Sequence record: KM389302.1 | Length of the DNA: 25,398 nucleotides | Source of the DNA: Escherichia phage CBA6 | Strand: one strand, 5' to 3' | In this document: positions 4,159 to 24,957 of the stretch, in pieces | How positions within the stretch are numbered: position 1 is the first letter of the stretch | How the letters are laid out: every line of letters begins with the position of its first letter | The notes under the pieces: generated by a model | Databases searched by the model: none | Told to the model about the DNA's origin: nothing | What the model saw: only the letters and a program-made list of their open reading frames with translations | Translations under genes and position numbers: made by a program

Positions 4159-4181
4159 GACTTTACCCTCAATTTTGAAGG

Positions 4182-4188
4182 TATTTAG
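4182..4188 (-). promoter_or_regulatory. Candidate late promoter element CTAAATA (variant of T4 TATAAATA) upstream of the gp14-like gene
   Basis: Minus strand reads tgaCTAAATAcc 23 nt upstream of the ATG at 4158. The same heptamer recurs upstream of five other late genes. Confidence 0.4.
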
Positions 4189-4219
4189 TCAATCATTAAT
4201 TCTTTTGAGGAATTGATAA

Positions 4220-4432
4220 ATGAAGGTTGAAGATATTAAAGAAACTCGTGACGGAAGGCGTGTGAGAATTATCTGTGTGGATGCTAAAGTCGCAAATAAT
4301 TCTTATAACATTGTGGGTCTTATTAAAGGCAAAGATGGGAATGATTTTATTGAATGGTGGGATGAAAAGAACGTGGTTGATGGTTATATTCTAGCAAATT
4401 CAAATCCTTCCGACCGTGACATCAAGTTATAA
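4220..4432 (+). CDS. Hypothetical 70-aa protein on the opposite strand, inserted between the neck genes
   Basis: GAGGA Shine-Dalgarno 9 nt upstream of the ATG at 4220. Stop is followed directly by the hairpin at 4438-4457. It is the only complete plus-strand gene in the module. Confidence 0.55.
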   Translation: MKVEDIKETRDGRRVRIICVDAKVANNSYNIVGLIKGKDGNDFIEWWDEKNVVDGYILANSNPSDRDIKL

Positions 4433-4437
4433 AAAGA

Positions 4438-4457
4438 AAGGCGGGTTATCCCGCCTT
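4438..4457. terminator. Bidirectional intrinsic terminator between convergent genes
   Basis: aaggcggg-ttat-cccgcctt, 8-bp GC-rich stem. On the minus strand it is followed by a U-rich tract (uucuuuuuau), directly after the gp13-like stop at 4461. Confidence 0.6.
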
Positions 4458-4460
4458 CTC

Positions 4461-5213: not shown

Positions 5214-5541
5214 TGTTATTCCCTCGTTGCTGCAAATCAGATACAGTAATCCGCAATGTGCGGACATCGTCTGATAGGCTGCTGCTATTGAGTTTTAACT
5301 CAGCCATATTTTGTTTGACATATGCGAGGTCTGTATTCATGATCGCCATGCGCTCACTCATGTCATTCACTTTTTGAAGGACCTGATCCATTTTATTAGA
5401 ATCTCGCTCCAATACATTCACGCGTGTTTCCATCCCACCCATAAACCAAAGGAACGACGCCGCCGAGACCAATGCAGAAGCCACGACAGCAGTCAAGATA
5501 CCACGGATATCAAGCCCAGATCTTTCAGCTTGCGTCGCCAT
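5200..5541 (-). CDS. Small protein with one N-terminal transmembrane helix and a coiled-coil C-terminal region
   Basis: 113 aa. Hydrophobic stretch ILTAVVASALVSAASFLWFMGG, then heptad-like charged sequence. Strong AGGAGG Shine-Dalgarno 5 nt upstream of the ATG. Overlaps the gp13-like start by 14 nt. Confidence 0.55.
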   Translation of the reverse strand: MATQAERSGLDIRGILTAVVASALVSAASFLWFMGGMETRVNVLERDSNKMDQVLQKVNDMSERMAIMNTDLAYVKQNMAELKLNSSSLSDDVRTLRITVSDLQQRGNNNGRQ

Positions 5542-5773
5542 TCTGACCTCCTTCGGGGATTTCTATCCCCAACTTTTCGGCCATCATTTTGATCGTCGCC
5601 TCCAGATTCGATATCTGGTTTGATTGTTCAACAATGGTGGCTTCACGGGTTTCGTTGCGTTGACGGGCTTGCAATGCAGCCATACCTGCAGCATGATCAG
5701 TACAAATGATCGCGCCTGGACAAGAACTGCTTCTCAACATGGATGCGTGCCCCTGTACTTTCATTCCACGCAT
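5525..5773 (-). CDS. Hypothetical small protein (82 aa from the internal ATG)
   Basis: The listed ORF start at 5812 is GTG with no Shine-Dalgarno. The ATG at 5773 (MRGMKVQ...) has GAGGA 6 nt upstream. Its end overlaps the next gene by 17 nt, suggesting translational coupling. Confidence 0.4.
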   Translation of the reverse strand: MRGMKVQGHASMLRSSSCPGAIICTDHAAGMAALQARQRNETREATIVEQSNQISNLEATIKMMAEKLGIEIPEGGQNGDAS

Positions 5774-5825
5774 ATCTTTATCCTCTATTGGTTTGGTGGG
5801 CTTTACGCCCACCTTTCAACATTAT

Positions 5826-8800
5826 TTATGCCAGAGCAATAAGACGGAAGTCTTTGAATGATGGAGGAGCAACGCGGTTCCCCCGTACAAGCGCTCGGAC
5901 TTTCAGGCCAACAAACGGGTTATTGCTCGCCACAGTCTTGTCGTATTCATATTCAAAGAATGTAGAACCGTCGTTGACCAGAGGCGACGTTGGAGTAACA
6001 TCTTCCCAAGCCACACTATCCATCTCCTGACCTGCTCTAAGAAGTTTCACCTGCACCTTCATAGAAGACTGAGATGGGAGCATTGCACCAAAGAACAACT
6101 TCACAGTCGAACATGGGTTATCAAATCCGATGTCTTTTGTAACATATTTGAAGACATCTTCAAATGGATCCACGCCGTATGAGTTGAAGATTACGCTCAG
6201 GTCATCGCCATCAATCATTGGAGCGGTGTACACGTTGTTTTCACTGCGCGTCATGGTGGCTCGGATCTGGAAATCCCCAACCTGACGATAGATCCCTTCA
6301 GTCGGCAACGCCACGTCAGTGTCAGTTTCAAATTCAGCCCAATCAGACATAGAATTGGAAGTAGCATCGCGATAGCGATATTCCAATTTCAGAATTGAAC
6401 CTTCCAGAGCTGAATTGGTGACACTGGCATAAAACATGTCAACCAGATAATTGCCCAAGAATGAAGCATTATCCCCGCCGATTTGCCCGTTGCTGTCTGC
6501 TGCTGAACCGACATCGATCTTGAATGAAGTATAGCTCGCATCTGTCACGGTAAATGTTTTGTTAAGTTGTTCAGGAGTAAATCCACAGCCACCTGTCAAT
6601 TCAGACAGAGTAACATTGTTCCCAGCAACCAAACCGTGACCAGGTGCAAACACGGTCACGACAGAAGACCCGCTCACACAGTTGAGAGTGTTCAATCCCA
6701 ACGGACGTTGTTTCGGTCCAAGTTTCGGATCAAATGTTACAACGTTCTGACCAGCAGCAAAGTTACAACGATAAACACGGAACTTCATATCTGCCATCTG
6801 GTTGGGAGACCATGTTGAACCGTTTGAAGAAGTGAAGAACACCCCTGTATACGGCTGCTTGGCGATATATTCGTTGGACAAAAGGTTTTTCTTGCCCATT
6901 TCCGCGATATATGCGTTGTAATCCTGAGTATTCGCCAACAAAACAATAGCAAACTCAGTCGATGCTTGCAAGTACACCGGATAATCGAAGGTGAACTTCG
7001 TTCCACCGGAAGAGTCTGTAGAGATCGTCACTTCAGACGGGTTCAAAGTTTTACGAGTTATGACGGTATGGGACGGTAATCCATTCTCCATCTCGCGAAT
7101 TTCCAGGGTGATCGGAACATCACGTGACTTGGTGGAGAAGAATACTTCCACGCCTTCGATATATTCACCACCGATCTTAGTTGCCACCATAAACGATTGG
7201 GCAATTGGATCACGCCATTGATCGACCACAACTTCAGAAGTGCTGGTTTCTGTGCTGGTGCTTGCGGTATAACCCAGAACACGAGTATTGACAAAGGTCT
7301 TTTGAATCCCTTGTTTCTTACCGAAAGACTTGTGAACAATTTCAGCATTAGTCAGCGTATCATCTGCAGATTTACTGTCAACAGGGCTATCCGTTAAGCG
7401 GAACACGTTGTCGCCTGTGTTGAATTTGATCGTATCATTCTGAGGAACGCGGAACACGCCTTTGACTGCGCCATTGGCATCAGTGGTGATTGGGTCACCA
7501 AAATTACCACCATTCGGCTTGCAATACAGATTCACATCACGACCTGAGAAGAATGCATACATGCGAGTGAAAGGTCGCAACCCAGAAGCGTCGAAAGAAA
7601 TATCAATTTCGCGCATGTATGGGATAACCTGCGTTTCCACAATCTGTTCGCCAGTCATGGTCGTGGTTGTTTTGTCCGTGTATGTGTATGTGGTGACATC
7701 ACGGGCAGAAACAGTCGTGCGATAGCGGTATCCCCACCACACACCACCAGCGCCATGCGGCTCCCAAACACGATCAGAAACAGAAACAGTACGCCACGTC
7801 CCGTACACCGAACCTTCTTGTACAGTACCACGAGTGTTGATCGTTTCATTGATAACACGCGGGGCGACATAGTAGTTTTCAAACCAGTAATCCGTGGTCG
7901 GGTTAATCTTCAAGAAACCTTCCCAGTTGAATACTGCATACGGGTTAACGTTGATCGTCGTCGTCGCGTATTCTTGGTTCACGGAGATTTCAGGCGTGTA
8001 GTTACAAACCACCATACCATCCATCACTTTGTTCCAGCCTACTGGAGTCATGTCAACGGCGTTCTGTTGAACAAACGGGCGCAAACGTCCATTTTCCGTA
8101 TCGATAGATCCCATCCAATCTTCAGACAGATCATCAATAAGACGGAAGTCTTTGAATGGATCGGCGGCGATACCGTTTTTGAATCGCGGATTACCCGTGA
8201 TTGGATCAAATACCTGTTGTGTCATCGCCGAAGATTCCAGCTGCGACAGAGAGGTGTAGTATTCAACGTTGGAAATACGCGTTTCCAGTTTACCGATATC
8301 ACGCATCGTATAACGACGGTTATCGATGGTGCGAATTTGTATATCATCGATATTCGGCGTGTATGGGGGAATCAACAGTTCATACAAACGCATGGAGTTT
8401 GCAGGTATTGCTGGGGACGCCAGGTTGTTGGAACTGATGCCACGGGCTACACCAAACACGCCATTATCTGCCAGATAAATCGCGTCGATACGAGGCAAAT
8501 AATACTCTGTGTCCAGGATGACAGCCGTATTCGGGCGAACCATATCAGTGTCGGATGTCCCGTTGGTAATTTTCGGACGGAAATCAAGGCTATCGGCCAA
8601 ACCATACACCGCCCCAGATGTAGAGGATGTATAATTCGGGATATCTTTGTAATCCATTGAAGTATACGAATCCGCTGAGAAGAAATCCCCCGAACTATGC
8701 GCGAAGTATTGATACACCACCGTATACGTCCCTGAAATGGCTCCAGCGGTGGATAACAGATTAGCCTTGTAATATCCCGCATCGCGTTGACCACCGTCGA

Positions 8801-10664: not shown

Positions 10665-10696
10665 TTTGATGCTCCATCGAGTGCCATTTATAGAGA

Positions 10697-10703
10697 TATT
10701 TAG
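10697..10703 (-). promoter_or_regulatory. Candidate late promoter element CTAAATA (with adjacent TATAAAT) upstream of the 1612-aa gene
   Basis: Minus strand reads tataCTAAATAtctcTATAAATggcactcgatggagcatcaaaATG. Confidence 0.4.
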
Positions 10704-10725
10704 TATACAGCCAACAGACAGATAG

Positions 10726-10750
10726 AAATAAAAACCCCGCCGAAGCGGGG
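10726..10750 (-). terminator. Intrinsic terminator with a UUCG tetraloop, downstream of the 653-aa tailspike gene
   Basis: Minus-strand RNA folds as ccccgc-uucg-gcgggg followed by uuuuuauuu. Confidence 0.65.
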
Positions 10751-10757
10751 GATTTCA

Positions 10758-12719
10758 TCAACCGATTGTGAGATTAAATTCCATTTCTGTTACGACTGCA
10801 GATGGATTGTATAACGTAATTGTCCACGAAAAATCGTTAGTTTTCGAAATGACACAATATCTTCCTGTGCCTGGGGAACTAAAAGATGCCGCTAATTTAT
10901 TCATGCTTGTAAATGAATTTATCACCCAAACACCAGGAGATGTCTTCGTTACCGAACAATTAACTGCACTCGTCAGAGCACCAGAACCATTTACAATCAC
11001 TGATATTGGTTCGTCCAGAATTCTAACCACTCCGGAGTTTAATGAATATGAATTCATAACAGTTCCAATACGATTTCCCTGTAAATATGTGATGGCAGTA
11101 GAAGCCAGTCCCGTTCTATTCAACAATACATTTGTAACTCCCAAACCAGTACAACCCAATATTTGTGTGTCAGACACTAATCCAGACGTGGTGCTGGTTT
11201 GTTCACAAACCGCGTCCACAACATTACTACCGTTGTAACAATTGAAAGATACATTTATCAATTTATTTCGTCGTATTGATTTGCCTGCATTAGATTGTAT
11301 CTGTAATACACGGTTATATTGGCCAGGTGTATTAATCTGCACAAAACAATTTTGAATAACATTGTCATAACTATCAGTTAATGAAACGTTATGGTCAGAA
11401 ATACCGAAAGCAGATTTATAATCTCCATTATTGTTCATTTGAATAAAAACACCTTCAACGGTGTTATTGCTACAACCTTGTATTGCTATGACGTGGTCAT
11501 TCCCGTTAAATGCTCCTGCGGAAATAGAAACAAATTTACCACCAATGATTTTGCAGCCAGAACAACCTCTGGAAAATTTGATATTATTGTTGCCGCCAAC
11601 GACACCACCGACGTCGCCCAAATTAGCAGAACTCATTATTCCTTCACAATTTATGAATTGGAAATCTGTGGTTGGGAATCCAACACCATCTGCTGACGTC
11701 CCATGGAAATTAATCAATAACCCATTTTCCGCATAACCTTCAGATACATAGCCACCTTTACAACCCAGAACCTCCATATTCCCGCCAGCTTGAGAAACTC
11801 CAACGAATCTCGGATATGTGATTTCTGGGTACAATGCACCTATAATAACAAGGTTCCCGTGATTTGGTCCTTTAAAACCTGTATTTTCAAATACACATTT
11901 GTTAGACCTAACCCCAACACGCCGAGAATTATCAGTTGAACCATAAGATGTGTTCCCCAATCTTAATGGGGTTACTGTTGCTGTGGTTGTCGTGAAGACT
12001 ACACCCGAAACTTCAGTATAATTTCCTGTTAATTCGATAGCCCCTTTATTCGTGTCAAACGAATTCCCCAACAAATTGATTTTGTTTCCGTTGCCAATGA
12101 TGCGTTTACTGTCTAAATTGTTCACCACGTTGCTCGACAACCCAACATCTATATCTAAAATGATCGTATTATACACATTTAGAAGATCATTCAATATATT
12201 TGAAACGTCTTCGCCAGAAGAAACCCAATTAGATATGTATGTTTCTTTCTCGCCAATATTATTTTTTACAAAAATCCAAGCTGAACCAGAAATACCACCA
12301 GTATTTTCCAACTTTTGGGTAGAGGGAACAATTTTTGGAAGAGACCCACCCCAACGATAAAAACAATTATTATGGCGTATCATTTCATTCTTAGTACGGA
12401 TTGTAAACCCATCTGAAAACTCTTCCGTCATTTCGATAAATTCGCCGCGCAATACAGCCAGCGCACCCAAATCTACAGTGCCTCCGGAGTGCGTGAGGAT
12501 GCCGTCGACTAAACTAGTGACCGTTACAGCACCAATGTTAGAAGGAAGAGCATAGGCACGTTGGGTCACCTTATCGTAGATCACTTTATAACCAGACAAG
12601 GACTGCCCTGATTTCGCATAAACGACTTCCGACTTTTTACACCCAAATTTACGAGCAATACTGTCTTTGTTCGATTCTTTTGAAGTAGAACCTTTTGGTT
12701 GAGCAAATTGCGGATTCAT
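10758..12719 (-). CDS. Tailspike protein, putative polysaccharide depolymerase (653 aa)
   Basis: N-terminal module (ARKFGCKKSEVVYA...YKVIYDKVTQRAY...YRWGGSLPK) is shared with the other tailspikes. The rest is N/G/S/T-rich with short repeats typical of a parallel beta-helix. AGGAG Shine-Dalgarno. Confidence 0.7.
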   Translation of the reverse strand: MNPQFAQPKGSTSKESNKDSIARKFGCKKSEVVYAKSGQSLSGYKVIYDKVTQRAYALPSNIGAVTVTSLVDGILTHSGGTVDLGALAVLRGEFIEMTEEFSDGFTIRTKNEMIRHNNCFYRWGGSLPKIVPSTQKLENTGGISGSAWIFVKNNIGEKETYISNWVSSGEDVSNILNDLLNVYNTIILDIDVGLSSNVVNNLDSKRIIGNGNKINLLGNSFDTNKGAIELTGNYTEVSGVVFTTTTATVTPLRLGNTSYGSTDNSRRVGVRSNKCVFENTGFKGPNHGNLVIIGALYPEITYPRFVGVSQAGGNMEVLGCKGGYVSEGYAENGLLINFHGTSADGVGFPTTDFQFINCEGIMSSANLGDVGGVVGGNNNIKFSRGCSGCKIIGGKFVSISAGAFNGNDHVIAIQGCSNNTVEGVFIQMNNNGDYKSAFGISDHNVSLTDSYDNVIQNCFVQINTPGQYNRVLQIQSNAGKSIRRNKLINVSFNCYNGSNVVDAVCEQTSTTSGLVSDTQILGCTGLGVTNVLLNRTGLASTAITYLQGNRIGTVMNSYSLNSGVVRILDEPISVIVNGSGALTSAVNCSVTKTSPGVWVINSFTSMNKLAASFSSPGTGRYCVISKTNDFSWTITLYNPSAVVTEMEFNLTIG

Positions 12720-12750
12720 AATAAGAATCTCCTGTTTTTCTCTAGTAAAT

Positions 12751-12767
12751 ACCCTCCGAAGAGGGGT
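12751..12767 (-). terminator. Hairpin with a UUCG tetraloop between the 926-aa and 653-aa genes; possible attenuator or weak terminator
   Basis: Minus-strand RNA folds as accccuc-uucg-gagggu, followed by only a weak U tract. Confidence 0.35.
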
Positions 12768-12773
12768 ATATTT

Positions 12774-15554
12774 TTAAATAGAAGAATCCAATATACGGTA
12801 ACTAATTAACTTATTAGGGTCTACAGGATTAATCAGGTTGTAGTACCGTGAAGCTACATAATCATTCTCAGAAGAGAACATACCAACATACACTTTAGCA
12901 CCTACACCAGAACAGGCATCCCCACCAGCATTGCTATCCGAGAAGAATGTTAATGAAGAAGTTAATCCGAATATAGAATTAAATGGTACAGCTAAATAAG
13001 CGCCTCGGAATGACCGTCTGATTCTCTTACCCGTCTGAATATTAAGAATACTCCACCAGAAATATCCAGGTTTAGCACCAATAGCTATATGATATGGCAC
13101 ACCACTTTGTAGTTTAAGGTCGTTAGGTAAATCCCCAGATAAAATTTGGGTTGTACCATCGCCCCCCAATAGCAAAGCAATTGTTTGTTTTCCGGAAGCG
13201 TCTATAACTAATTGAAGATGAAGACTGTTGGATGTATCACTAAACCCTGAACCAATGGCCATGAAGTTAAATACTTCAGCTCCAGATATGGTAGGTACTA
13301 CAACAGCAGCCATGGTAATACCTTCTGGACCTGCTGTTCTTGAGTACAGTAATTTATCTTTGTTGGCTTGTGATAGTCTCAGACCATTTACTTGCCCTAC
13401 AGAAGATGGGACACTTACATAAACAGGTGTAGTGCTAACACCATCAAATGTAGGGGTCTCGTTCATGGTTTGCAAACCAGTCTTGGAATAATTAACCAAT
13501 CCGTTAATGCTCAGGTCGGAATTTGTGGGGTTGATAATATTGTTATCACCAATAAAGTTAATGCCCATATAACCAGTCTCAACCACACCATTAATGGTGA
13601 CGCTGCAATCATTAGACAGGAACTGAAAATTGCCCGCACTAGAGTTAGCACCTGAACCACTATTCGCGGCATAATTGAGTCCTACGAATCCGTTGATAAC
13701 TGCATCACTTTTGTTAAATACGATGTTGTAGAAAGTGTTGTTAGCGTTGATGCCGTTACGATTGGTGTTCAATCCGTTCATGGAAATTGAATATGAATCG
13801 CTAATCTCAATGCCATTCCCGCCACAATCTTGTACCTCAATACCATTAATAACCATATTCTGGCTATTATTAATAGTAATGCCTGGGAACTGTCCTACTG
13901 TACCATAAGGTTGCCAGTTAGCCCAAATGAATTTACCACCAATAATACGACCATTACCACAACCATCAAGAACCAGACATTGTTTACCGCAGGTATTAAC
14001 CTGGATATTTGTCCAAGTCCAATCAGTAGTAGCACAACGGACGCCCACCTGATTGATGTGGTTGACTAAAAGAGAATCTGTAGTAACACTAAAGTTACCA
14101 CTATCAATATTTAACCCATATTCATCAAAACCTGCTATATGGACCTTAGAAATACACAAGTCGCGTCTTGGGTCTGCGGTAGTGTGGAACGGATAATCAG
14201 CTGAGAGACCTGAAGGAGTTTCTATATAGATACCTGTTGTACCCGCAGTAAATGATGTGCCTTGTTGTGCACCTGTGCCATATACCCCAAAGGAGTCTAA
14301 TACAATAAGGGAGCATGTATCTTTTATGGTAATACAATTCCCAGTAGCAGAAGGCAACTGATGCAACCTGGAGTAATGTAATCCAGACCCATAAATAGAC
14401 GACGTATTATATTTTAACCGGATATTGCTAACGTAATGTACACCAGTTAATTGTGTGGCCTTACCACTGTCCACACAAGATTGTACTGGAATAGTATCAT
14501 CATTAGAACCGCCCAAAGCACCAAACATGAATGGGTTAACTCTATCAGCATTAACACGTAACCAGGCTGCGCCTCCAACAGTTTTGATCACAGTGCCGTT
14601 ATCATCAGTCTTTCCTGTACCATCAATTAACGCACGGAATACCCCTCCACCAAGAAGAGTACCCGCAGTGTGTTGCTTAAGAATAATGCGTTGTCCATCC
14701 ATAGTGGGTTCAGTATTCCTGAGATCAGCAACAGAATGGCATTCTCCGATATACTTGGCACCATCATTGCGCCCCAGAGTGTTTATCACATTAATAAATG
14801 AATCTTCTAAAGGCAACAAATCCACTACAACATTACCTGGATTATAAGTAAGTTGCCCATTACTAACAGAAGAAATCACTGAACCATCAGGGATAGTTGG
14901 TAAACCATAAATAATCTGCGCCGCTGAATCATAAACAACTTTCTTGTCGTCGAGTAAAGATATGGTATCAGTGCTGACAATGACTTCAGAGTCTTTTACG
15001 TTAGCCGAACGGGCAATTTCTTGGATACTGCGATCGAACGCCGGACTGATGTTCGGTTGTTTAACAGACATCTCCGCAACAACCCACACCCCTGCAGTCA
15101 GCGCAGTTTGTAAGGAAACTTTCCCAGTCGTACTGTTGTATGAATATTCTATATCAGGAGTTTTGTACTCACCACCGATATAAAGAGACTGGACACCATA
15201 AGAAGTAAAGTCAGGCGTGAATTCAGTTTCTCCACCCACGGCTTGAAATTTGTATATTCGAATACCTTTAGAAGTATCTTCTGGTGAAAGAATTTTATCG
15301 AATAAGCAATACACAACATCGCCTTTGGACAATGCGCGCCCGAGATTCAACGTATTCCCGTCTATCTCGAAGTTGTCTAACGGAACTTGCATGCCGCCGT
15401 TAATTGTGATAACACCAGTGACAGGATAGAAAGGTAGAGAAAAGAAAGTTTCTCCACCGACACTTGATTTATAAGTGAAAGGAATCTGGTGGGGAGCTGT
15501 GACTACGCCGCCGAATAATTCTTCTACATTTCTGGTCATTTGAAAATACCCCAT
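12774..15554 (-). CDS. Tailspike protein with a T7 gp17-like N-terminal anchor domain and beta-helix body (926 aa)
   Basis: N-terminus IPFTYKSSVGGETFFSLPFYPVTGVITINGGMQVPLDNFEIDGNTLNLG fits the pattern of podovirus tail-fibre N-terminal anchors. Central region has tandem NG-rich beta-helix coils. The start may instead be the second ATG at 15539 (MTRNVEE...). Confidence 0.7.
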   Translation of the reverse strand: MGYFQMTRNVEELFGGVVTAPHQIPFTYKSSVGGETFFSLPFYPVTGVITINGGMQVPLDNFEIDGNTLNLGRALSKGDVVYCLFDKILSPEDTSKGIRIYKFQAVGGETEFTPDFTSYGVQSLYIGGEYKTPDIEYSYNSTTGKVSLQTALTAGVWVVAEMSVKQPNISPAFDRSIQEIARSANVKDSEVIVSTDTISLLDDKKVVYDSAAQIIYGLPTIPDGSVISSVSNGQLTYNPGNVVVDLLPLEDSFINVINTLGRNDGAKYIGECHSVADLRNTEPTMDGQRIILKQHTAGTLLGGGVFRALIDGTGKTDDNGTVIKTVGGAAWLRVNADRVNPFMFGALGGSNDDTIPVQSCVDSGKATQLTGVHYVSNIRLKYNTSSIYGSGLHYSRLHQLPSATGNCITIKDTCSLIVLDSFGVYGTGAQQGTSFTAGTTGIYIETPSGLSADYPFHTTADPRRDLCISKVHIAGFDEYGLNIDSGNFSVTTDSLLVNHINQVGVRCATTDWTWTNIQVNTCGKQCLVLDGCGNGRIIGGKFIWANWQPYGTVGQFPGITINNSQNMVINGIEVQDCGGNGIEISDSYSISMNGLNTNRNGINANNTFYNIVFNKSDAVINGFVGLNYAANSGSGANSSAGNFQFLSNDCSVTINGVVETGYMGINFIGDNNIINPTNSDLSINGLVNYSKTGLQTMNETPTFDGVSTTPVYVSVPSSVGQVNGLRLSQANKDKLLYSRTAGPEGITMAAVVVPTISGAEVFNFMAIGSGFSDTSNSLHLQLVIDASGKQTIALLLGGDGTTQILSGDLPNDLKLQSGVPYHIAIGAKPGYFWWSILNIQTGKRIRRSFRGAYLAVPFNSIFGLTSSLTFFSDSNAGGDACSGVGAKVYVGMFSSENDYVASRYYNLINPVDPNKLISYRILDSSI

Positions 15555-15640
15555 AAAGGATTTGCCAATATGGGGTATTTAGTCTGAACTAATAAAATTT
15601 TATGAACAAAGGTATGATAAAAACCCCGCCGAAGCGGGGT
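15548..15640. repeat. About 90-bp intergenic cassette, copy A
   Basis: Near-identical to 17678-17770. Contains a palindrome (aaatacccca / tggggtattt), the CTAAATA motif, and the UUCG-loop terminator. Confidence 0.8.
15576..15582 (-). promoter_or_regulatory. Candidate late promoter element CTAAATA upstream of the 926-aa tailspike gene
   Basis: Minus strand reads cagaCTAAATAcccc, 21-36 nt upstream of the candidate ATGs. Confidence 0.4.
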
Positions 15641-15647
15641 TTTTATC
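15616..15647 (-). terminator. Intrinsic terminator with a UUCG tetraloop, downstream of the 675-aa tailspike gene
   Basis: Minus-strand RNA folds as ccccgc-uucg-gcgggg followed by uuuuauc. Confidence 0.65.
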
Positions 15648-17673
15648 AATCGGCCGTTTTGATTGGTGAATACAGCCCGCCTCCGCGATGAATCCATGCA
15701 TAAACGTTATCTGTAGTTGGGGTTATCGCCGAACTCCGATAGAACATAAAACCAACAGGAGCACCGCTATAGTTAGGCATGGCATTATGTTTGCCTTTCG
15801 CTTTGTCCCACCCGCAAAACGTTGGCATTGGCGTTGCATGATATGCTGACGCATACACGCCGCCTATAGCAATCGACTTACCAGAATTTGTAGTAATCAT
15901 AATACGAGATGCTTTTGTTCTATCAACAGGTGCTGAAATTTTGTATAATCTCCAGCCATTTCCCATGTCGTAGAACTTAGTAGGATCACCGTAAATAGAA
16001 CCCTGTCCATCTGCCGATTGAATGTAAATGGAGTTAGGCTCACCACGCACAAACAGGGCGGCTCGAACGAAACCTGTAGCTGAACGAAGGCAGTTGATAG
16101 CAAAGTATACTTGTTCCGATACGCTTTCGTACCCTACATATCTACCGCATCCTGAAGGCTCATTTGCATCGGTTCCAAAAACCAAACCAGAATTAAGCCC
16201 ATTGAAGTCTACAGGATATCCGTTATTGTTAATAACACTCCAGTCACCACTTTGGCAAAGGTTTGAACCGCTCATGGATATAAAGTCACCACCCTGCATT
16301 CCAGCAGTATGGTCACTGAACATCGCGTGGTTCATATAGTGCATTGAACTTGCCATCATGCCGAATTGGCAACGATAACCGACAATGGACCACGGACCGC
16401 GGATTTTACCGTTTCCGTTTACTTCGCCATATAGACCAATGACGGTGTTATGCTGCGCAGGTACAGACACGTTGTCTAGAACATACCCCGCCGAACCACT
16501 AGCGTCCAGACCGACGAATGTGTTCGCATTACCTTCAGTATTACCACCTTCTGGAACCCATGTATGAGAACCTTTAATAAGAACTGAACCCACACATTGG
16601 GTGTATACGTTTTGATTACAAGACCCGGAAGATATATCAATAATAATTTGCCCGCCACCGGATGTGGTTCCAGCACGAATACGCGTGAAGTTATTCCAGT
16701 AACTACCACCGCGCCAAGGAATTAAGCCTGTAGGCGTAGTTTCTATACCGCCTTTTAACGTGAAGTTTGCCGAGCAATCTATGTTAGATATGTTATGAAA
16801 TTGTGCACCTTGAACTAACATATTACGACAGCTAATACCCTGTATGTCCAAAGAACGCGCATGAAGTATTAAAAAATCCGCATCAGGGATAATACCAAGA
16901 CACTCCACATTACAACGAACAATAAATTGTGCGTAATAAGCGTGATAGCCGGACAAATTGGCTATTGAAGTTTTGTAAATTCCTTTTGGTATGAATAACT
17001 TTCTTCGGTTTTTACCATACTCAACGAGAGCATTATAATCACTGTTAATCGCATCCAGAGCGGCACAAATAGCTGCTGTGTCATCCGTGACCCCATCCCC
17101 TACGGCACCCCATCCTCGAATGTCACCTTCATCACGCCAGCGAGCCATCTGCAATTCTGGGTAAAGAGTGGCTCCACTTGGATTAGTAATCTGGCTTCTT
17201 AATGACGCATCACCAACACTAACCCATGCACCTAAATCAACGCCGCCTGAGTTATCGGGTGTAGAACCAGCGGCAACTACCTTTGGCAAAGAACCATCCC
17301 ATCGATATTTTTCATCATCGTGAACAAGAAGTTCATTTTTCACATTAATGGTATGGCCGAAATTAAAAGAACCAGGTAAAGTCACATATTCTTCGCGGCT
17401 TACTGCTAATTCCCCAAGGTCTACAGAACCAGCGGAATGAGTGAGGATAGCTCTTTCATCCAGACTAATTGCAGTTGTCCCTGAAACAATACCGGAAGGG
17501 AGAGAATAAGCCCGTTGGGTAGACTCATCATAAATTACTTTAAATCCACTGAGATCAATACCGACAGTGAAATAAACGACTTCGTCTTCTTTGACACCGA
17601 AATTTCGAGCGATAGATTGTTTGTTAACTTCTATGGAAGTAGAGCCGCGTGGTTGATTGAATTGAGAAATCAT
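15646..17673 (-). CDS. Tailspike protein, putative depolymerase of the pectate-lyase-like beta-helix type (675 aa)
   Basis: Shared N-terminal attachment module (ARNFGVKEDEVVYF...FKVIYDESTQRAY...YRWDGSLPK). GWGAVGDGVTDDTAAICAAL matches the hallmark N-terminal motif of pectate-lyase-superfamily beta-helix enzymes. Confidence 0.75.
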   Translation of the reverse strand: MISQFNQPRGSTSIEVNKQSIARNFGVKEDEVVYFTVGIDLSGFKVIYDESTQRAYSLPSGIVSGTTAISLDERAILTHSAGSVDLGELAVSREEYVTLPGSFNFGHTINVKNELLVHDDEKYRWDGSLPKVVAAGSTPDNSGGVDLGAWVSVGDASLRSQITNPSGATLYPELQMARWRDEGDIRGWGAVGDGVTDDTAAICAALDAINSDYNALVEYGKNRRKLFIPKGIYKTSIANLSGYHAYYAQFIVRCNVECLGIIPDADFLILHARSLDIQGISCRNMLVQGAQFHNISNIDCSANFTLKGGIETTPTGLIPWRGGSYWNNFTRIRAGTTSGGGQIIIDISSGSCNQNVYTQCVGSVLIKGSHTWVPEGGNTEGNANTFVGLDASGSAGYVLDNVSVPAQHNTVIGLYGEVNGNGKIRGPWSIVGYRCQFGMMASSMHYMNHAMFSDHTAGMQGGDFISMSGSNLCQSGDWSVINNNGYPVDFNGLNSGLVFGTDANEPSGCGRYVGYESVSEQVYFAINCLRSATGFVRAALFVRGEPNSIYIQSADGQGSIYGDPTKFYDMGNGWRLYKISAPVDRTKASRIMITTNSGKSIAIGGVYASAYHATPMPTFCGWDKAKGKHNAMPNYSGAPVGFMFYRSSAITPTTDNVYAWIHRGGGLYSPIKTAD

Positions 17674-17706
17674 GATAATGCCCCATAAAGGATGACCAAT
17701 ATGGGG

Positions 17707-17713
17707 TATTTAG
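17707..17713 (-). promoter_or_regulatory. Candidate late promoter element CTAAATA upstream of the 675-aa tailspike gene
   Basis: Minus strand reads cagaCTAAATAcccc, 33 nt upstream of the ATG at 17673. Confidence 0.4.
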
Positions 17714-17745
17714 TCTGAACTAATAAAATTTATGAACAAAGGTAT

Positions 17746-17770
17746 GATAAAAACCCCGCCGAAGCGGGGT
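17746..17770 (-). terminator. UUCG-tetraloop hairpin, third copy of the conserved terminator
   Basis: Same ccccgc-cgaa-gcgggg sequence as at 10735-10750 and 15624-15639. Confidence 0.55.
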
Positions 17771-17776
17771 TAATGA

Positions 17777-17929
17777 GAAGCGCATGAACAAGAATATCGC
17801 GCAGAAAAGTCAGGTAAGCGCATAAAGGAACTCGAAGCGGAGAACGCCAGACTACGGCAGCAACTGGACGCGGCGAACGCGCAACTGTATTTTATTCTGG
17901 AGAATCTTAAGACGCAGCAGGTGGATTAA
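17777..17929 (+). other. Start-less 51-codon open frame encoding a coiled-coil-like peptide; possible gene remnant or acquired fragment
   Basis: Frame reads EAHEQEYRAEKSGKRIKELEAENARLRQQLDAANAQLYFILENLKTQQVD and ends at TAA 17927-17929. There is no in-frame ATG/GTG/TTG after the upstream TGA. The segment looks GC-richer than flanking phage DNA and is followed by a strong terminator. Confidence 0.3.
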
Positions 17930-17933
17930 GGAA

Positions 17934-17964
17934 AAGGCCCCGTAAGGGGCCTTAGTTTTATTTT
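17934..17964. terminator. Strong bidirectional intrinsic terminator
   Basis: aaggcccc-gtaa-ggggcctt followed by agttttatttt on the plus strand. It also lies just downstream of the minus-strand core tailspike stop at 17958. Confidence 0.7.
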
Positions 17965-20900
17965 GTACTAACGAAATCAAATTCGTGAAGAGCCATTGAA
18001 CCTGATGATATTCTTGCATCTAGTAAGGTGCCATCAATGGAAATTAACTTTTTATTCGCAATTGTTCCTATAAGAACACCATTACTAAAAAACTGAACTA
18101 TACCAGGTCCTTTACCGTTGTATTTAGCGGTTAAAGCGCCCTTCATTGGAGCTGAAGGTAAAGCAATGACGGTCTCTACTCCAGCAACGGATATAACACC
18201 ACGTATATCACTCCCTGTATTAAATCTGAATCCGAAATAGTTTCCTGATTCGAAACTTCCGGAATGTAATAGTCCTCCTGGTATGTTTTGCATGCTCCAT
18301 GCGATACTAAAGGCGCGGTAGTTGTTTGTCTCAAACTCATACGTTAATCGATGTTTTCTTGTTACACGATACCGACAAGTTCCACCAGAACTTGCTGCTT
18401 GCATATATAACCCATCATCCTCGAAATAAGTAAATGTGTCCGCAGGCTGAACTGTTGTTTTAGTGAATTTATCATGGTCCTGGAAAAGTGTATGGTAATG
18501 CGTTATGTCGTGGCGAGCGAATGCGTTCACACCCATGATTGTTTTAGATGCTTGTTCTATAATAAAACCAGCCATAACGCCATCAGAATACATTTGCGCT
18601 TTTTGACCAATAACAGGATGAAAATCATTCGCGATAATAGCCCCACCAATCGGCAGCGCGACATATTCGGTTAGCACCCCAGATGCTGGTGGTAGATTAT
18701 CAAGTTGGGTGCTGTTATAGTTAATAATACCGCCGTGTTTTGTTACTAATCCTGCCTTATTTATCGCGTTTCCAAATTGCGGCGATTCAACGCTTATTGT
18801 ACTGTTGTAAGCCTCAATGCATTTATCGACGCCTACGCCGTTGAATGATGGTTGAAATACGCCACCGCTGGTGCAGCCATAAAATTCAATGGATGCGTTT
18901 TCGTCAGAATGCGTGCGCCCCTTGAAGTTAATCTGTTCAATAGATGGTGAATATGGGGTTCCGCCACAGTTGAACAGTTGAATAGAGTTAAGGCTAACTT
19001 TGCTTGGGTCTGCTGACCTGCTCCCAATTTTTATTCCGGCTTGCTGGCTTGAACTAGGAGGGAACAATGGCGTACACCCACGCTTACTGCGAACAACGAC
19101 ATCCTCAGGAGTACCGGTGTTGCCGTAATTATCTGCAATACTAATTACAATTCGCTGCCAGTAATTGTTTGGAATGGCATCAACGGCATCTTGTACAGTG
19201 GGGTAATCTTCCGGAACCATGAGTGTTACAGGCATCGTGTAAATACCTGGCACTGTTGACGAGTTAACACCAAATGGGTGAATGTAACCACGATACGGAT
19301 CATTACCTCCGATAGTATTGATAAACCCTTCGATGCGCACTTTTGATGTATCAGTGTACAGATATCCACACTCGCCAATATCTACGCGGAACTTCGCAGG
19401 GATAGTCAGATCTTCTGTAAATTTCACTGGAACATTGACAAAAACACGACCATTACCAGAAGCTATGGCGCGTTTGAAAGCCTGCGTGTAGTCTGGTGCC
19501 GCTGGGTCTCCTGGCTCAACAAATGCGCGAAGGTCATAAAGTCTTTCCTGCTGACCGCCAGGGATTAAAAAACCTTTATCTCCTGTTAATTCAGTTCTTA
19601 ATGATGCATCACCAACGCTAACCCATGCACCTAAACCAACGCCGCCAGTTGTTGTCGGAGTTGAGCCAGGAGCCACAGTTTTAGGAAGTGTCCCATCCCA
19701 ACGATACTTACCGTTCGTATGGGTGAGTAATTCATTTTTAACATTGATAACAGCACCAGAATCAAATGTCCCAGACAAGGTAACATATTCTTCACGAGAT
19801 ACAGCTAATGCGCCCAGATCAACACTACCAGCAGAATGCACAAGTACAGCCGAAGAACTAAGGCTGACTGCCGTGGTTCCAGTCGGTAGCTCTGGAATAA
19901 AATATGATCTCTGTGTTACTTTATCATAGATAACTTTATACCCGCTTAACACCGCACCAACACTAAAATAAACAACCTCTGTATCTTTAACATTGGTTAC
20001 ACGAGCCACTTCCCGCAAAGTATAATCAATTTGATTATAGATGTTTGGCGTTCCATTGATAATTACAACAACTTCATCCTCTGCATCCAGTTCTTGCGCA
20101 AGAGTGATTTTACTGGTTAATGGATCAAATGTGAACCCCAGATTTTTATACTGGCGACTTCCGTTTATATCAATGGCCGGAACATCATCGACAACGATGT
20201 CTAACGTGATTTCGGTTTCACCACCAATCGCAGAACCCCCATTATAGACCCAGGTAATCGTAGAAGAACTAGAACCACCGCCATTACCCAATTGAATAGG
20301 AGTATATTCAATCACCTGAAGTTCTGTGCTGGCTGGCAAAGAAGGACTGAAAGTGATCACATTCCCATCTAGTGAATATTTGGATTCCGCAAGACGTTTT
20401 CCGTCAGCATACACGTCCACGATTGTTGGTGGCGTATTGAGAGTGACAGCGCTTGTTTCAGACGCCAAAATTTGTGTAAAAATCTCACGACTGTAGACAC
20501 GGCCTTGGCCAAGGCCGACGCCGGATGTGACAACCCAACCTTGTTCAGGCCCAGACCAAGTGAAAGTCGCCGACACGTTATCGGTGGATATCGTCATATC
20601 TTCGGTGGAGCCGTAAAGGTTATTTCCCGCTGGAGATACAGTCAATGGGTAAGTGGCGAATTTTCCATAAGCATCACAAATAGTAACGGAATCCCCAACA
20701 CGTGTAGGGGGAGGGAGAACCACTGTAGATGCCCCTGTGGTGTTATTAATGAGATAGCCGCGACCTTCTAACAAATTGCTAGAGGGAGCGTGAGGGAGCG
20801 TTTCCCAGCGTATTCCACCGCCCCCCCAAAGACAACCAACCACCGTTTTCGTAATAACCTTCAAATTCATCGCTATCAGGATTGTAACGTACAGAAGATG

Positions 20901-21051
20901 GAAGACCTGCAACTTCAGTATCTTCAGGGAATGTCATTACGGCACCAGGGGAATGCTCAATAGTGCCGGAGTTGTTGAAGCCTTTTATGTTCGAAGACTC
21001 AGAAGTTTCTAAACCCAAAGGGAAAAGAGGCTGTGTTGGTTTGTTAGCCAT
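17958..21051 (-). CDS. Core tailspike with a T4 gp10-like N-terminal baseplate-attachment domain; reading frame broken at a G7 homopolymer (about 1030 aa if fused)
   Basis: The 90-aa ORF (20779-21051) has a native-looking N-terminus (...VRYNPDSDEFEGYYENGGWLSLGG). After a one-base frame change at the tract it continues into the 984-aa ORF (GGIRWETLP...GRGYLINNTTGASTVVLPP...). The nominal N-terminus of the 984-aa ORF has no ribosome-binding site. Downstream are T7 gp17-like modules, a complete copy of the shared tailspike attachment module, and a beta-helix body. Confidence 0.65.
20821..20827. repeat. G7 (plus-strand C7) homopolymer tract at the frame junction of the core tailspike gene
   Basis: Minus strand reads TTG GGG GGG CGG. 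Deleting one G gives the in-frame fusion ...GGWLSLGGGGIRWETLP... Confidence 0.9.
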
Positions 21052-21088
21052 TTGTAATACCCCTAAATGTATTCATGTCATCTAGGGG

Positions 21089-21095
21089 TATTTAG
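21089..21095 (-). promoter_or_regulatory. Candidate late promoter element CTAAATA upstream of the gp10-like core tailspike gene
   Basis: Minus strand reads aaaaCTAAATAcccctagatgacatgaatacatttaggggtattacaaATG, with a tacccct(a) / (t)aggggta palindrome. Confidence 0.4.
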
Positions 21096-21097
21096 TT

Positions 21098-22288: not shown

Positions 22289-22290
22289 TT

Positions 22291-23145
22291 TTAGCTCCTT
22301 GTGCTTTCTAGGAATACAGTAAATCCAGCAGGATGGAAATGCTGACGGAAGACGCGCTCAAACACACCTTCAAAATCAGATACGTCGCCTGGGACTCCTA
22401 TAACATAAGTGTATTCATCATAATAGTAATCATCACGCATCCCTGTCGTGCCGTCACATTCAAAATTTCCGTCCAGACCGCCTATGTCTTCTTTCGTAAA
22501 ATAGACGCTGACTGGACAACCGAAATATATCCAAAAGAACAATTCAATCGCTTTCTTTGTTCCACGTATTTTATAGATGTGTTTCAACAATTTCAGCCAA
22601 CGCGGATGATCCAGAGTTCTTCGTTTAGTTCCTTCGATATAAACAGAGAACGTATCGCCCGTGGCCGTCAATAAAGAATCCGAACCGACTGGGATAAAAT
22701 GTCCAAATTCTTGAAATGATTTATCGACAGTTCGTTGAAACCCAAAATCATTATACCAGTCGTCTATCTGCTTGTTCTTGTCTTCAATAGAAAGCAACGG
22801 CCTTCCATCAGCGTCTAGCAGCGTCTCGGCATCAAGAGCCATCATGTTCTCAAATGTTCTGACCAAAAATTTATCTGACAAATAATCTTTGGCTTCAGAG
22901 CCTGGCGTTTTGTCGGCCTTTAAATCTATGAGTTGTTTAACAGGAGAATCTTCACTCTCAGGATTCATCCAACTCGAAGTGTCTGCCAGATATGCCAAAA
23001 TTTCTTCTTGAGTGAAGCCCTGCTGCCGATACAGCCAATTAAAGAACGTGTCCATGAACTCGATGAACAGAGGAAAATCGTTTTGGTAAAACAACGGGGT
23101 TTCATACTTAACCCCATTGTGACCATTATTAAGATCTTTGGACAT
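22291..23145 (-). CDS. Hypothetical baseplate-associated protein (284 aa from the ATG at 23145)
   Basis: Located between the gp6-like and fibrous genes. GAGG Shine-Dalgarno 8 nt upstream of the ATG at 23145. Start overlaps the gp6-like end by 17 nt. Confidence 0.5.
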   Translation of the reverse strand: MSKDLNNGHNGVKYETPLFYQNDFPLFIEFMDTFFNWLYRQQGFTQEEILAYLADTSSWMNPESEDSPVKQLIDLKADKTPGSEAKDYLSDKFLVRTFENMMALDAETLLDADGRPLLSIEDKNKQIDDWYNDFGFQRTVDKSFQEFGHFIPVGSDSLLTATGDTFSVYIEGTKRRTLDHPRWLKLLKHIYKIRGTKKAIELFFWIYFGCPVSVYFTKEDIGGLDGNFECDGTTGMRDDYYYDEYTYVIGVPGDVSDFEGVFERVFRQHFHPAGFTVFLESTRS

Positions 23146-24910
23146 AGCGCACCTCTGGCGTAACAACCACATCACCGATTTTGAATACCTGGTTTTGTGA
23201 AGCCTGTATATTCTGATTCAGGCCATCTGGTAGCACAACGATCGTTACTCCTTCAGTATTATAGTTTGAAACCGTAATCTGCTGAAGATCTACGACGCCG
23301 TTGGCGTAATCCACAACACCAGTCTTTTGAACCAAAAATTCTTTAGTGGTGTCGTTGTTGTTCACTTTATACATGTTCAAATCGCCATTGTCATCGCGCA
23401 TATAATAAGTGAAATCAACTTCGGCCGGAAGCGGTTTAAACCCTGTTATTTTCACAGAACCAGGTTTAATGCTTCTCCCATAACTGAAAGTAAAGCTATC
23501 CAACACACCATAATCAGGTTTGAAATGACGTTTATAACCGACAGACGTGATATTTGAGTTAATGGAACGTTCCATTTTCGTAATTGCTTCCTGCAATATC
23601 TCTTTGTCGAATAACTGATCAAAACCACCGAGATTGTTTTCACCCCATTTGGTGATACTATTACCCACCACCACTTTCATTTGTTCTTCAACATAAACCG
23701 TTGAAGTCGGATCCCAAAATATAGTCGTGGCGACTTGGATATATGTGATCTCAGAATCTACCACTTTGGGGGTGATGGACCCAACGTTGTATTTGTCCAA
23801 CGCGGCAACGATATCAGCCTTCTCTGCGTCTGAAAGAGTCTCCCCAACAGATGGTATCACAGCGATATAAACGTAACCAGAATCCGGAGGGGAAAGCGTA
23901 TCACCCCCATATGATTTAGCACGGGCAACGTTAGAAAACAAGCGTTCAGTTAAAACACCGTAATCGGTTTCCGTAACGGCAGCGCCATCAGCCTGATAAG
24001 CCAAAGGTGCCAGACGCTTCGTATCTTCAATAGATTCCGGATCTCCCCCACCCGCACTGCGTTCGGAAACCAATTCTATATCAACCTGGTTAAACCCGCC
24101 TATCGAAGATGCGGAAGATAAACTAGTGATGTCATTACCTTCAGCGCCAGAAGTTTCTAAATACTGGAGGAAAATAACGTTGCCATCTTCTACTCGGCGA
24201 GACAGATAACCATCTCCGAACTCAAACACATACAGGCCATCTATCCCTAATTCCACAAAATAGAGATATGCATATTGATTCAGGTCGAACGGACTGTTGT
24301 ATCTCTGGTATGTCGTTGAAACATCAGAGGACTCTGATTCCTGTACCTGTACGACCAGATGATTGATATCAACATTTTCCGAAGGTATCGTATAAGTCGA
24401 AATCGCGCTTCCTTCAACATCATATGTCTTGTACAACCAGTTACCCTGAATCAGTTTCACGTTGTTGAACATGTAATAACCGTCTGTTGTCAACGTGGCG
24501 GACACGGGTTTTTCAACAGTAAAGTTGTAGGAACTCCCATCCTTCGCCCCAACGAACATCACACGGCGGTCCATAATGATCTCATTAGGAGCTGTACTGG
24601 CGTCATACGGCGTTACTTTGATGTTGGCATACATGTATGCCGCCCGATAGTTGTCGGGGGTATAAGAAAGAAAAGCAGCAGACAAACCAACATTAGAACG
24701 TTGATTTGCTGTTTTTAAATGGCCTTCACCATTAAGCATGTTCTGCATAAAGGCTATGGCGTTCGCATCAGATGCCAACAAACGAATAATAGCACTAAGA
24801 CCGGAACCTTCAAAGTCATAATCTTTAAAGGTGGGATCAGCTTTCATTCGCTGTTTGATAATGTACTCAAAGGCTCTGACGTCGAGTGAAGGAACTGTTT
24901 GCGTGGCCAT
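23129..24910 (-). CDS. Baseplate wedge protein (gp6-like)
   Basis: DYDFEGSGLSAIIRLL and GGGDPESIEDTKRLAP resemble recalled T4 gp6 motifs. The listed ORF start at 24961 is TTG; the ATG at 24910 has GGAG 7 nt upstream. Confidence 0.65.
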   Translation of the reverse strand: MATQTVPSLDVRAFEYIIKQRMKADPTFKDYDFEGSGLSAIIRLLASDANAIAFMQNMLNGEGHLKTANQRSNVGLSAAFLSYTPDNYRAAYMYANIKVTPYDASTAPNEIIMDRRVMFVGAKDGSSYNFTVEKPVSATLTTDGYYMFNNVKLIQGNWLYKTYDVEGSAISTYTIPSENVDINHLVVQVQESESSDVSTTYQRYNSPFDLNQYAYLYFVELGIDGLYVFEFGDGYLSRRVEDGNVIFLQYLETSGAEGNDITSLSSASSIGGFNQVDIELVSERSAGGGDPESIEDTKRLAPLAYQADGAAVTETDYGVLTERLFSNVARAKSYGGDTLSPPDSGYVYIAVIPSVGETLSDAEKADIVAALDKYNVGSITPKVVDSEITYIQVATTIFWDPTSTVYVEEQMKVVVGNSITKWGENNLGGFDQLFDKEILQEAITKMERSINSNITSVGYKRHFKPDYGVLDSFTFSYGRSIKPGSVKITGFKPLPAEVDFTYYMRDDNGDLNMYKVNNNDTTKEFLVQKTGVVDYANGVVDLQQITVSNYNTEGVTIVVLPDGLNQNIQASQNQVFKIGDVVVTPEVRYVQRS

Positions 24911-24950
24911 GATAATCTCCATCACCTGAGTTTGAATATGGTGTTGAAGA

Positions 24951-24957
24951 TATTTAG
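24951..24957 (-). promoter_or_regulatory. Candidate late promoter element CTAAATA upstream of the gp6-like gene
   Basis: Minus strand reads ctttggCTAAATAtcttc, about 40 nt upstream of the ATG at 24910. Confidence 0.35.

Follow-up and report, generated by a model that had tools for sequence, protein, structure and literature searches.

In phage genomes of the genus Kuttervirus, the heptamer CTAAATA stands a short distance upstream of genes for virion and lysis functions. We analyzed this element in a stretch of Escherichia phage CBA6 (KM389302.1; 25,398 nucleotides (nt), hereafter the window), and conclude that this Kuttervirus very probably uses CTAAATA as the promoter signal of its late genes. 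The last bases of the motif often begin an inverted repeat that encloses the Shine-Dalgarno (SD) sequence of the gene behind it. That the promoter and a hairpin gating translation act together is, on the sequence evidence, a likely reading; for the gate by itself, acting on read-through transcripts, we would put the chances slightly above even, by analogy with phage T4.

The window is a structural-gene block (Ackermannviridae; ViI/CBA120-like). By megablast, it is 94-98% identical over the matching parts to many Salmonella and E. coli phages; the differences lie mostly in the receptor-binding parts of the tailspikes, and phage CBA120 is ~94% identical over the matching part of one 5.8-kb window stretch. 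All long open reading frames (ORFs) are on the minus strand. Transcription order runs from a gp6-like baseplate wedge gene through a 294-amino-acid (aa) gene, a 396-aa gene, and the tailspike genes TSP4, TSP3, TSP2, and TSP1, and then to a 1612-aa VrlC-like gene, small virion proteins, gp13, gp14, gp15, and the terminase.

CTAAATA occurs 9 times in the window, with 7 copies on the minus (coding) strand and 2 on the plus strand. Shuffling gives an expectation of 3.7 copies over both strands (standard deviation 1.9; ~1.8 per strand), and 9 or more are reached in 1 of 100 shuffles. The bare count, at ~2.4 times expectation, is only mildly unusual and weak evidence alone; the strong signal is placement. 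Six of the 7 coding-strand copies fall in the non-coding 4.7% of the window (binomial P = 7e-8); measured against the zone 15-50 nt 5' of start codons, which covers 2.1% of positions, the probability is 6e-10. The remaining coding-strand copy (18121..18127, minus strand) lies within the TSP4 coding sequence, has neither a start codon nor an SD after it, and is most likely a chance copy. Together with the plus-strand copies at 12992 and 24157, it fits chance expectation; all 3 lie in coding sequence. A preliminary description of the window had placed the coding-strand copies, read as plus-strand TATTTAG, at 4182, 10697, 15576, 17707, 21089, 24951, and 18121, and had set the first 6 of them 20-40 nt upstream of gene starts; all 7 positions were confirmed, and the gaps between motif end and start codon measure 23-40 nt. 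The canonical T4 late element, TATAAATA, has no copy in the window.

The 6 upstream sites, all on the minus strand, differ in their surroundings. Before the gp14-like head-closure gene, the motif (4182..4188; ATG at 4158, 23 nt downstream) sits in a 61-nt divergent intergenic region facing a 70-aa plus-strand ORF, and it is kept in 19 of 19 IMG/VR relatives. The copy before the VrlC-like gene (10697..10703; ATG at 10664, 32 nt downstream) follows a terminator at 10735-10750 by ~30 nt; it is present in all clades, while the leader sequence diverges. The motif of the 926-aa ORF for TSP2 (15576..15582; likely ATG at 15539, 36 nt downstream) lies 32 nt after a terminator at 15615-15648, and that of the 675-aa TSP3 (17707..17713; ATG at 17673, 33 nt downstream) follows a terminator at 17752-17771, such that 3 of the 6 sites are ~30 nt 3' of intrinsic terminators. 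The TSP4 site (21089..21095; ATG at 21051, 37 nt downstream) is placed only 2 nt past the stop of the 396-aa gene with no intervening terminator. Finally, all clades share the site of the gp6-like gene (24951..24957; ATG at 24910, 40 nt downstream). The gp6-like ORF as automatically listed extends over this copy; according to the CBA120 annotation, the real ATG is the one at 24910.

A near-canonical TATAAAT had also been pointed out at 10686-10692. It is indeed present on the minus strand, but it varies among close relatives (TATAAAA, TATAAT, or absent). It was ruled out as a second promoter for lack of conservation in these relatives, and is probably incidental.

The complete genome of CBA120, with 203 annotated coding sequences and 8.9% non-coding sequence, served as a genome-wide test set. 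A count by strand and by position relative to start codons, which the preliminary description had proposed, places 17 of 25 CTAAATA copies upstream of a same-strand start against 0.79 expected (P = 2e-17), and no other 7-mer is as enriched in CBA120 upstream regions. The heptamer is far from equally common in coding sequence, as 18 of the 25 copies are non-coding. The first base has a graded effect: copies in promoter position amount to 17 of 25 for CTAAATA, 8 of 17 for ATAAATA, 4 of 17 for TTAAATA, and 1 of 15 for GTAAATA. The ATAAATA figure includes 4 of the 5 copies of TATAAATA in the genome. Control heptamers with one mismatch elsewhere have 0-3 copies in promoter position. The genes behind the motif are largely of late type: gp48, gp2, gp54, hub, gp5, endolysin, gp22, gp18, gp14, VrlC, TSP2-4, gp6, and a RuvC-like resolvase; a few, including a DNA helicase and a starvation-inducible regulator, are not obviously so. 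The 54-nt divergent region between gp2 and gp54 is a compact example: each strand has one motif, at 33 and 34 nt from the respective start codon, and hardly any other sequence in the region could act as a promoter.

The ATAAATA variant also occurs in the window (5823..5829, minus strand), where it overlaps the VrlC stop codon 49 nt upstream of an 82-aa virion-protein gene (5525-5773). This arrangement recurs in CBA120 and in other clades, and the variant is possibly a weaker late promoter.

We propose that CTAAATA, with its rarer variants ATAAATA and TTAAATA, would be the -10-like recognition element of late promoters. It would be read, as in T4, by the host RNA polymerase core with a phage gp55-type late sigma factor, the gp33 co-activator, and the gp45 sliding clamp; a -35 element would play no part in recognition, and transcription would start ~6 nt downstream of the motif. 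We infer the promoter activity and also the start site, whose position is taken from T4 and Aeromonas phage Aeh1. For the sequence profile, and for the hairpin tests below, we used the 29 [C/A/T]TAAATA sites of CBA120 (17 C, 8 A, 4 T). In the profile, the information is in [C/A/T]TAAATA itself, together with an A-rich patch 5-8 nt past the motif, the place expected for a T4-type start site; upstream of the motif there is no conservation, and neither a -35 nor an extended -10 element emerges. This profile also bears on whether the motif could be the -10 hexamer of ordinary host sigma-70 holoenzyme promoters. CTAAAT does match TATAAT at 4 of 6 positions, and yet the accompanying -35 or extended -10 conservation is missing, and sigma-70-like matches in the window are at chance level (44 found versus 44.6 expected). 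In addition, the motif is in keeping with the gp55 class in that its final A never varies, C or A is preferred at position 1, and its use is restricted to late-type genes; an identical motif has been derived for the late genes of Aeh1. We therefore regard a sigma-70 promoter as very unlikely.

The motif persists where its surroundings change. It is kept at orthologous sites in IMG/VR genomes of at least 3 further clades, one of which includes Dickeya phage LIMEstone1, while the flanking intergenic sequence varies among clades. The pattern reaches as far as Vibrio phage K356, whose gp14 is 38% identical to that of the window: all 4 plus-strand CTAAATA copies in 16 kb are intergenic, and they stand after terminators and before VrlC-like, tail-fibre, and gp14 genes, among others. 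Close relatives of K356 encode a gp55 homologue 44% identical to that of CBA120.

Such distances matter for a further alternative, that the motif recurs by chance or was carried along when an intergenic cassette was duplicated. One repeated cassette of ~90-95 nt does account for the copies at TSP2 and TSP3, and the modest excess in the bare window count would agree with chance. On the other side, the remaining 4 window sites share the motif alone, the placement statistics are extreme, and the motif is kept in a phage with proteins only ~40% identical. This explanation is hardly credible, and it was rejected on the CBA120 enrichment, the K356 conservation, and the placement probability in the window.

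The genes for the proposed transcription machinery can be recognized in CBA120. The gp33 homologue matches the Pfam family Trans_coact (4.6e-19), and a gp45-like clamp has a weak match to gp45-slide_C. A 263-aa protein annotated as late sigma factor has tblastn matches to annotated gp55 of cyanophages, with ~27% identity over roughly half its length. Among the 60 listed of 873 tblastn matches for this gp55 homologue, neither the Aeh1 nor the T4 gp55 is present.

Known late promoters offer close parallels. Those of T4 (TATAAATA, read with gp55, gp33, and gp45) share the single AT-rich -10-like element, the lack of a -35 element, and the association with virion and lysis genes. The core TAAATA is identical, homologues of gp55, gp33, and gp45 exist in Ackermannviridae, and CBA120 also uses TATAAATA itself. 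They differ in that CBA120 mainly has C (17 sites, versus 8 with A and 4 with T) where T4 has TA. The predicted late promoter of Aeh1 is closer still, as it is the identical heptamer, unusual C included. Nolan et al. 2006 (PMC1524935) derived it, as CTAAATA from -12, upstream of late-gene orthologues, and called the Aeh1 gp55 divergent; Aeh1 belongs to the Straboviridae, in contrast to the Ackermannviridae studied here. Within the family, the record of LIMEstone1 (HE600015) carries minus_10_signal features named 'putative late promoter' at the sites orthologous to gp14, the VrlC-like gene, and tailspikes, TSP4 among them. In contrast to the heptamer described here, these are 6-mers in shifting register: TAAATA at the VrlC-like gene and a tailspike, and ACTAAA or AACTAA at another tailspike and gp14. 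The preliminary description had read the motif as a variant T4 late -10 element with C at position 1. The enrichment and orientation in CBA120, the absence of a -35 element, and the conservation support this reading, and the gp33 and gp55 homologues, the identity with Aeh1, and the LIMEstone1 features point in the same direction.

The promoter reading is thus supported, and it is not new in kind, having already been made in substance for the sister genus of LIMEstone1. The LIMEstone1 paper (Adriaenssens et al. 2012, PMC3296691) lists 33 late promoters by T4 similarity; the part of its text available to us gives no CTAAATA consensus, statistics, or hairpins. For ViI-like phages, the CBA120 paper (Kutter et al. 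2011) stated that the late recognition sequence "has not yet been identified." The AG3 paper searched for TATAAATA with one mismatch allowed, and the words promoter and transcription are absent from a 2024 review of the family. None of 60 sampled Kuttervirus GenBank records has a promoter feature at the TSP2 site. The literature searched contained no report for Ackermannviridae of CTAAATA as a late promoter or of transcription starts. The Viunalikevirus genus paper of 2012 in Arch Virol, also by Adriaenssens and colleagues, reportedly names 'conserved regulatory sequences' in its abstract, and may already state a consensus.

The sequence that follows the motif leads to the second part of the argument. 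It had been remarked that CCCC often follows CTAAATA. The tail is real, but it is not a simple extension of the promoter: it forms the anti-SD arm of a hairpin. An inverted repeat pairs the final 1-4 bases of CTAAATA and the next 5-11 nt with the SD-containing segment. The 5' arms begin anywhere from 3 nt before to 2 nt after the last base of the motif, with sequences at the motif end such as ATACCCC..., ACCTTC..., and TCTTC...; the stems are 8-14 bp, and the SD is within the 3' arm, whose end is 2-10 nt short of the start codon.

Five window sites, all but that of the VrlC-like gene, have strong hairpins, with folding free energies (dG) of -9.2 to -18.8 kcal/mol and z scores of -3.7 to -6.8 against shuffles. 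When folded from the predicted start site, taken as the sixth nucleotide past the motif, a position assumed from T4 and Aeh1, these 5 retain only -0.4 to -4.5 kcal/mol. All are on the minus strand. The gp14 hairpin (4164..4183; ACCTTCAA/TTGAGGGT) has the SD, GAGGG, in the pairing, and its dG goes from -9.2 (z -4.1) to -0.4 kcal/mol when folded from 4176. The TSP2 hairpin (15545..15579; AATACCCCATA/TATGGGGTATT) encloses the SD, with dG -17.5 (z -6.3) for the whole and -4.5 from 15570. For TSP3 (17681..17706; CCCCATA/TATGGGG, SD enclosed), the stem is shortened by a T-to-C change (GGGGCATT), and the values are -14.7 (z -5.0) and, from 17701, -3.1. The strongest hairpin is the 14-bp stem of TSP4 (21056..21092; AATACCCCTAGATG/CATTTAGGGGTATT, SD enclosed), at -18.8 (z -6.8) and -2.4 from 21083; among clades, its arms are conserved while loop and spacer vary. 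The gp6 hairpin (24915..24951; TCTTCAACACC/GGTGATGGAGA) encloses the SD GGAGA, with -11.6 (z -3.7) and, from 24945, -3.7; in another clade, its stem shows one U.G to C-G change. At the VrlC-like gene, there is a weak 6-bp stem (10672-10695; dG -3.0, z 0.2). Rfam 15 has no match at gathering score anywhere in the window.

The same structure recurs across CBA120. Removal of the first 9 nt costs at least 6 kcal/mol at 13 of the 29 sites, compared with 79 of 758 geometry-matched intergenic control positions, and the tested sites keep 0 to -5 kcal/mol when folded from the predicted start. Differences among orthologues are too few for a formal covariation test, and we swapped arms across paralogous sites instead. 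Cognate arms pair with a mean of -8.5 kcal/mol versus -4.6 for swapped arms (permutation p <= 5e-5, also without the TSP3 paralogue). Since cognate arms pair better than swapped ones, the pairing is gene-specific and not a generic attraction of C-rich to G-rich segments. Orthologous sites keep their arms, whereas the loops and the spacer ahead of the ATG vary.

With a stable stem immediately behind an AU-rich heptamer, the sites look like known RNase E contexts, which raises the alternative that the motif is an RNA-level signal, for example for RNase E-type cleavage of polycistronic late RNA. Half of the sites, however, have no adjacent stem, and many stand after terminators or in divergent regions without any upstream same-strand RNA to be cut (gp2/gp54, gp48, hub, gp14). 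Under such a scheme, the genes in divergent regions would have no promoter. We judge RNA cleavage to be very unlikely, a shade more so than a sigma-70 promoter.

The arrangement has a well-studied precedent in T4, where longer early transcripts fold and sequester the ribosome-binding site, while transcripts from the late promoter, without the 5' strand, are translated; the mechanism has been shown experimentally for genes e, soc, 49, and I-TevI (Uzan and Miller 2010, PMC3014915). The same review lists Aeh1 gene e without a leader hairpin. As in these T4 genes, the 5' arm here is in or next to the late -10 element and the SD is in the 3' arm; late transcripts in T4 do not contain the 5' arm, and the same geometry is predicted here. 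The arms of T4 gene e (AATACCTTC...GGAGGTATT) nearly match those of the CBA120 endolysin (AATACCTTCGCA...TGCGGAGGTATT), and the CBA120 resolvase is hairpin-bearing like T4 gene 49.

By this precedent, the outcome would depend on where the RNA begins. With transcription beginning at the predicted site, the anti-SD bases would lie in the untranscribed -8 to -1 region, and late mRNA from the gene's own promoter would thus have an open ribosome site. In read-through RNA from upstream, both arms would be present, the hairpin would fold, and translation would be muted. We infer this translational effect from the T4 cases. As for how widely the principle holds, it is about an even bet that, in Kuttervirus and its enterobacterial relatives, approximately half of the late promoters are fused to an anti-SD hairpin, and that translation of tailspike, baseplate, neck, endolysin, and resolvase genes is gated in this way.

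The same pipeline, run on T4 as a positive control, recovers the gene e hairpin (dG -13.0) and the soc structure. It passes threshold at 1 of 22 T4 TATAAATA sites (5%) versus 12 of 29 CBA120 sites (41%; Fisher p = 0.003, Mann-Whitney p = 2e-4). Two differences from T4 follow: the hairpin is present at 41-50% of candidate late promoters in CBA120 versus 5% in T4, or ~8 times more often, and in Kuttervirus it includes major structural genes (tailspikes, gp6, gp14), whereas in T4 it is found at lysis, accessory, and homing-endonuclease genes. The new part of this work is this frequent fusion of promoter and anti-SD hairpin; it extends the T4 paradigm and overturns nothing.

Accepting CTAAATA as the late promoter still leaves room for hairpins with another role, as weak terminators or attenuators, as 5' stabilisers, or as DNA-level structures. 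Several stems are followed by T-rich tails (e.g., GGGGTATTTTC and GGGGGTATTTTTATG), and terminator-then-promoter cassettes are the rule in the window region. Nonetheless, many stems have no T-run (e.g., GGGGTATTACAA, GGAGATTATC, and GAGGGTAAAG), and a terminator scan flags 15615-15648, 17752-17771, 10735-10750, and 4437-4458 and none of the promoter hairpins. A 5' stabiliser would need a transcription start within the -10-like element. What the hairpins have in common is the SD in the 3' arm, close before the start codon; for T4 gene e, whose hairpin has nearly identical arms, an effect on translation has been demonstrated. Another role is therefore unlikely, if less so than the sigma-70 and RNA-cleavage alternatives.

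Several observations weigh against a late promoter coupled to translational gating. For the promoter, the literature searched yielded no transcript 5' ends, time-course expression, or in-vitro transcription for Ackermannviridae. The genes for gp55, gp33, and gp45 lie outside the window, and their presence is deduced from genomes that are 94-98% identical; the gp55 homologue, in a departure from T4 gp55, matches no Pfam family. For the hairpin, about half of the CBA120 candidate sites have the motif and no hairpin. The TSP2 and TSP3 hairpins come directly after strong terminators, where little read-through is expected, and a hairpin is present at the gp6 site although the gene upstream of it is divergent. 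The association of hairpins with a co-directional upstream gene is a trend only (mean loss -6.9 versus -2.7 kcal/mol, p = 0.07). Orthologous stems are mostly invariant, with few true double compensatory changes, and the arms could in part be conserved because promoter and SD are each constrained on their own account.

The tailspike region of the window has further features. The TSP2 and TSP3 cassettes are near-exact repeats (15555-15650 and 17684-17775), each composed of a terminator (CCCCGCTTCGGCGGGG), a spacer, CTAAATA, and the hairpin; the terminator core is also found upstream of the VrlC promoter (10735-10750). The repeats could be recombination points for the exchange of tailspike modules. 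TSP1 (10758-12719) has no CTAAATA. Its 54-nt leader contains a hairpin, ATACCCCTC-TTCG-GAGGGTAT, at 12749-12769, which is like a promoter-type arm pair minus CTAA, with a separate SD (AGGAG) behind it; TSP1 and TSP2 probably share a transcript. In the window, a G-run at 20821-20827 (C7 on the plus strand, G7 in the gene) has one G more than orf213 of CBA120 (G6), and this splits the TSP4 gene into ORFs of 90 aa (21051-20779) and 984 aa. Either the extra base is a homopolymer sequencing error, or the frameshift is genuine or the tailspike anchor gene phase-variable. Between TSP4 and the TSP3 cassette lies a 182-nt non-coding stretch (17776-17957) with 50.5% GC versus 43.7% for the whole window; it contains its own bidirectional terminator (17934-17953) and may be the remnant of an inserted or lost gene.

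Opposite gp14, the 70-aa plus-strand ORF (4220-4432; MKVEDIKETRDGRRV...) has a good SD and terminates at a bidirectional terminator (4437-4458); no NTAAATA is present upstream of it. The counterpart region in CBA120 is a 302-nt gap without annotation, and LIMEstone1 has 2 plus-strand ORFs at this position. In K356, the annotated start of gp14 (13965-14015 region) is an ATG 5 nt after CTAAATA. A second ATG (ATGGCTACT...), 29 nt past the motif, matches the conserved MATS... N-terminus, and the annotated start is probably wrong.

A second family of 7-mers, TTCAATA, TCAATAA, and CAATAAA, is also enriched in CBA120 upstream regions (11-15 observed versus ~2 expected). These point to a motif like TTATTCAATAAATA before non-structural genes (e.g., at 134040 and 144093), which may be an early or middle promoter element; Kutter et al. 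2011 could not identify such elements by informatics. Finally, the records 'Pseudomonas phage Pa-sanjiao' and 'Enterococcus phage Efm 3-10' are 95-99.6% identical to Kuttervirus sequence, and are probably mislabelled or contaminated entries.

Phages of the Ackermannviridae are widely used in biocontrol, detection, and tailspike engineering. With [C>A>T]TAAATA and its spacing as a consensus, late genes and operon boundaries could be annotated in several hundred genomes of the family. If a tailspike swap or reporter insertion does not preserve both the promoter and the complementary arm, translation could be silenced or deregulated; conversely, if gating is true, the promoter-hairpin unit would be a compact natural part with translation limited to transcripts from its own promoter. 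Fusion to the hairpin would also explain the C-rich extension of the promoter consensus. At the level of the genome, gating would provide translational insulation from early and upstream read-through, and would turn a mechanism that serves a few genes in T4 into a general design rule.

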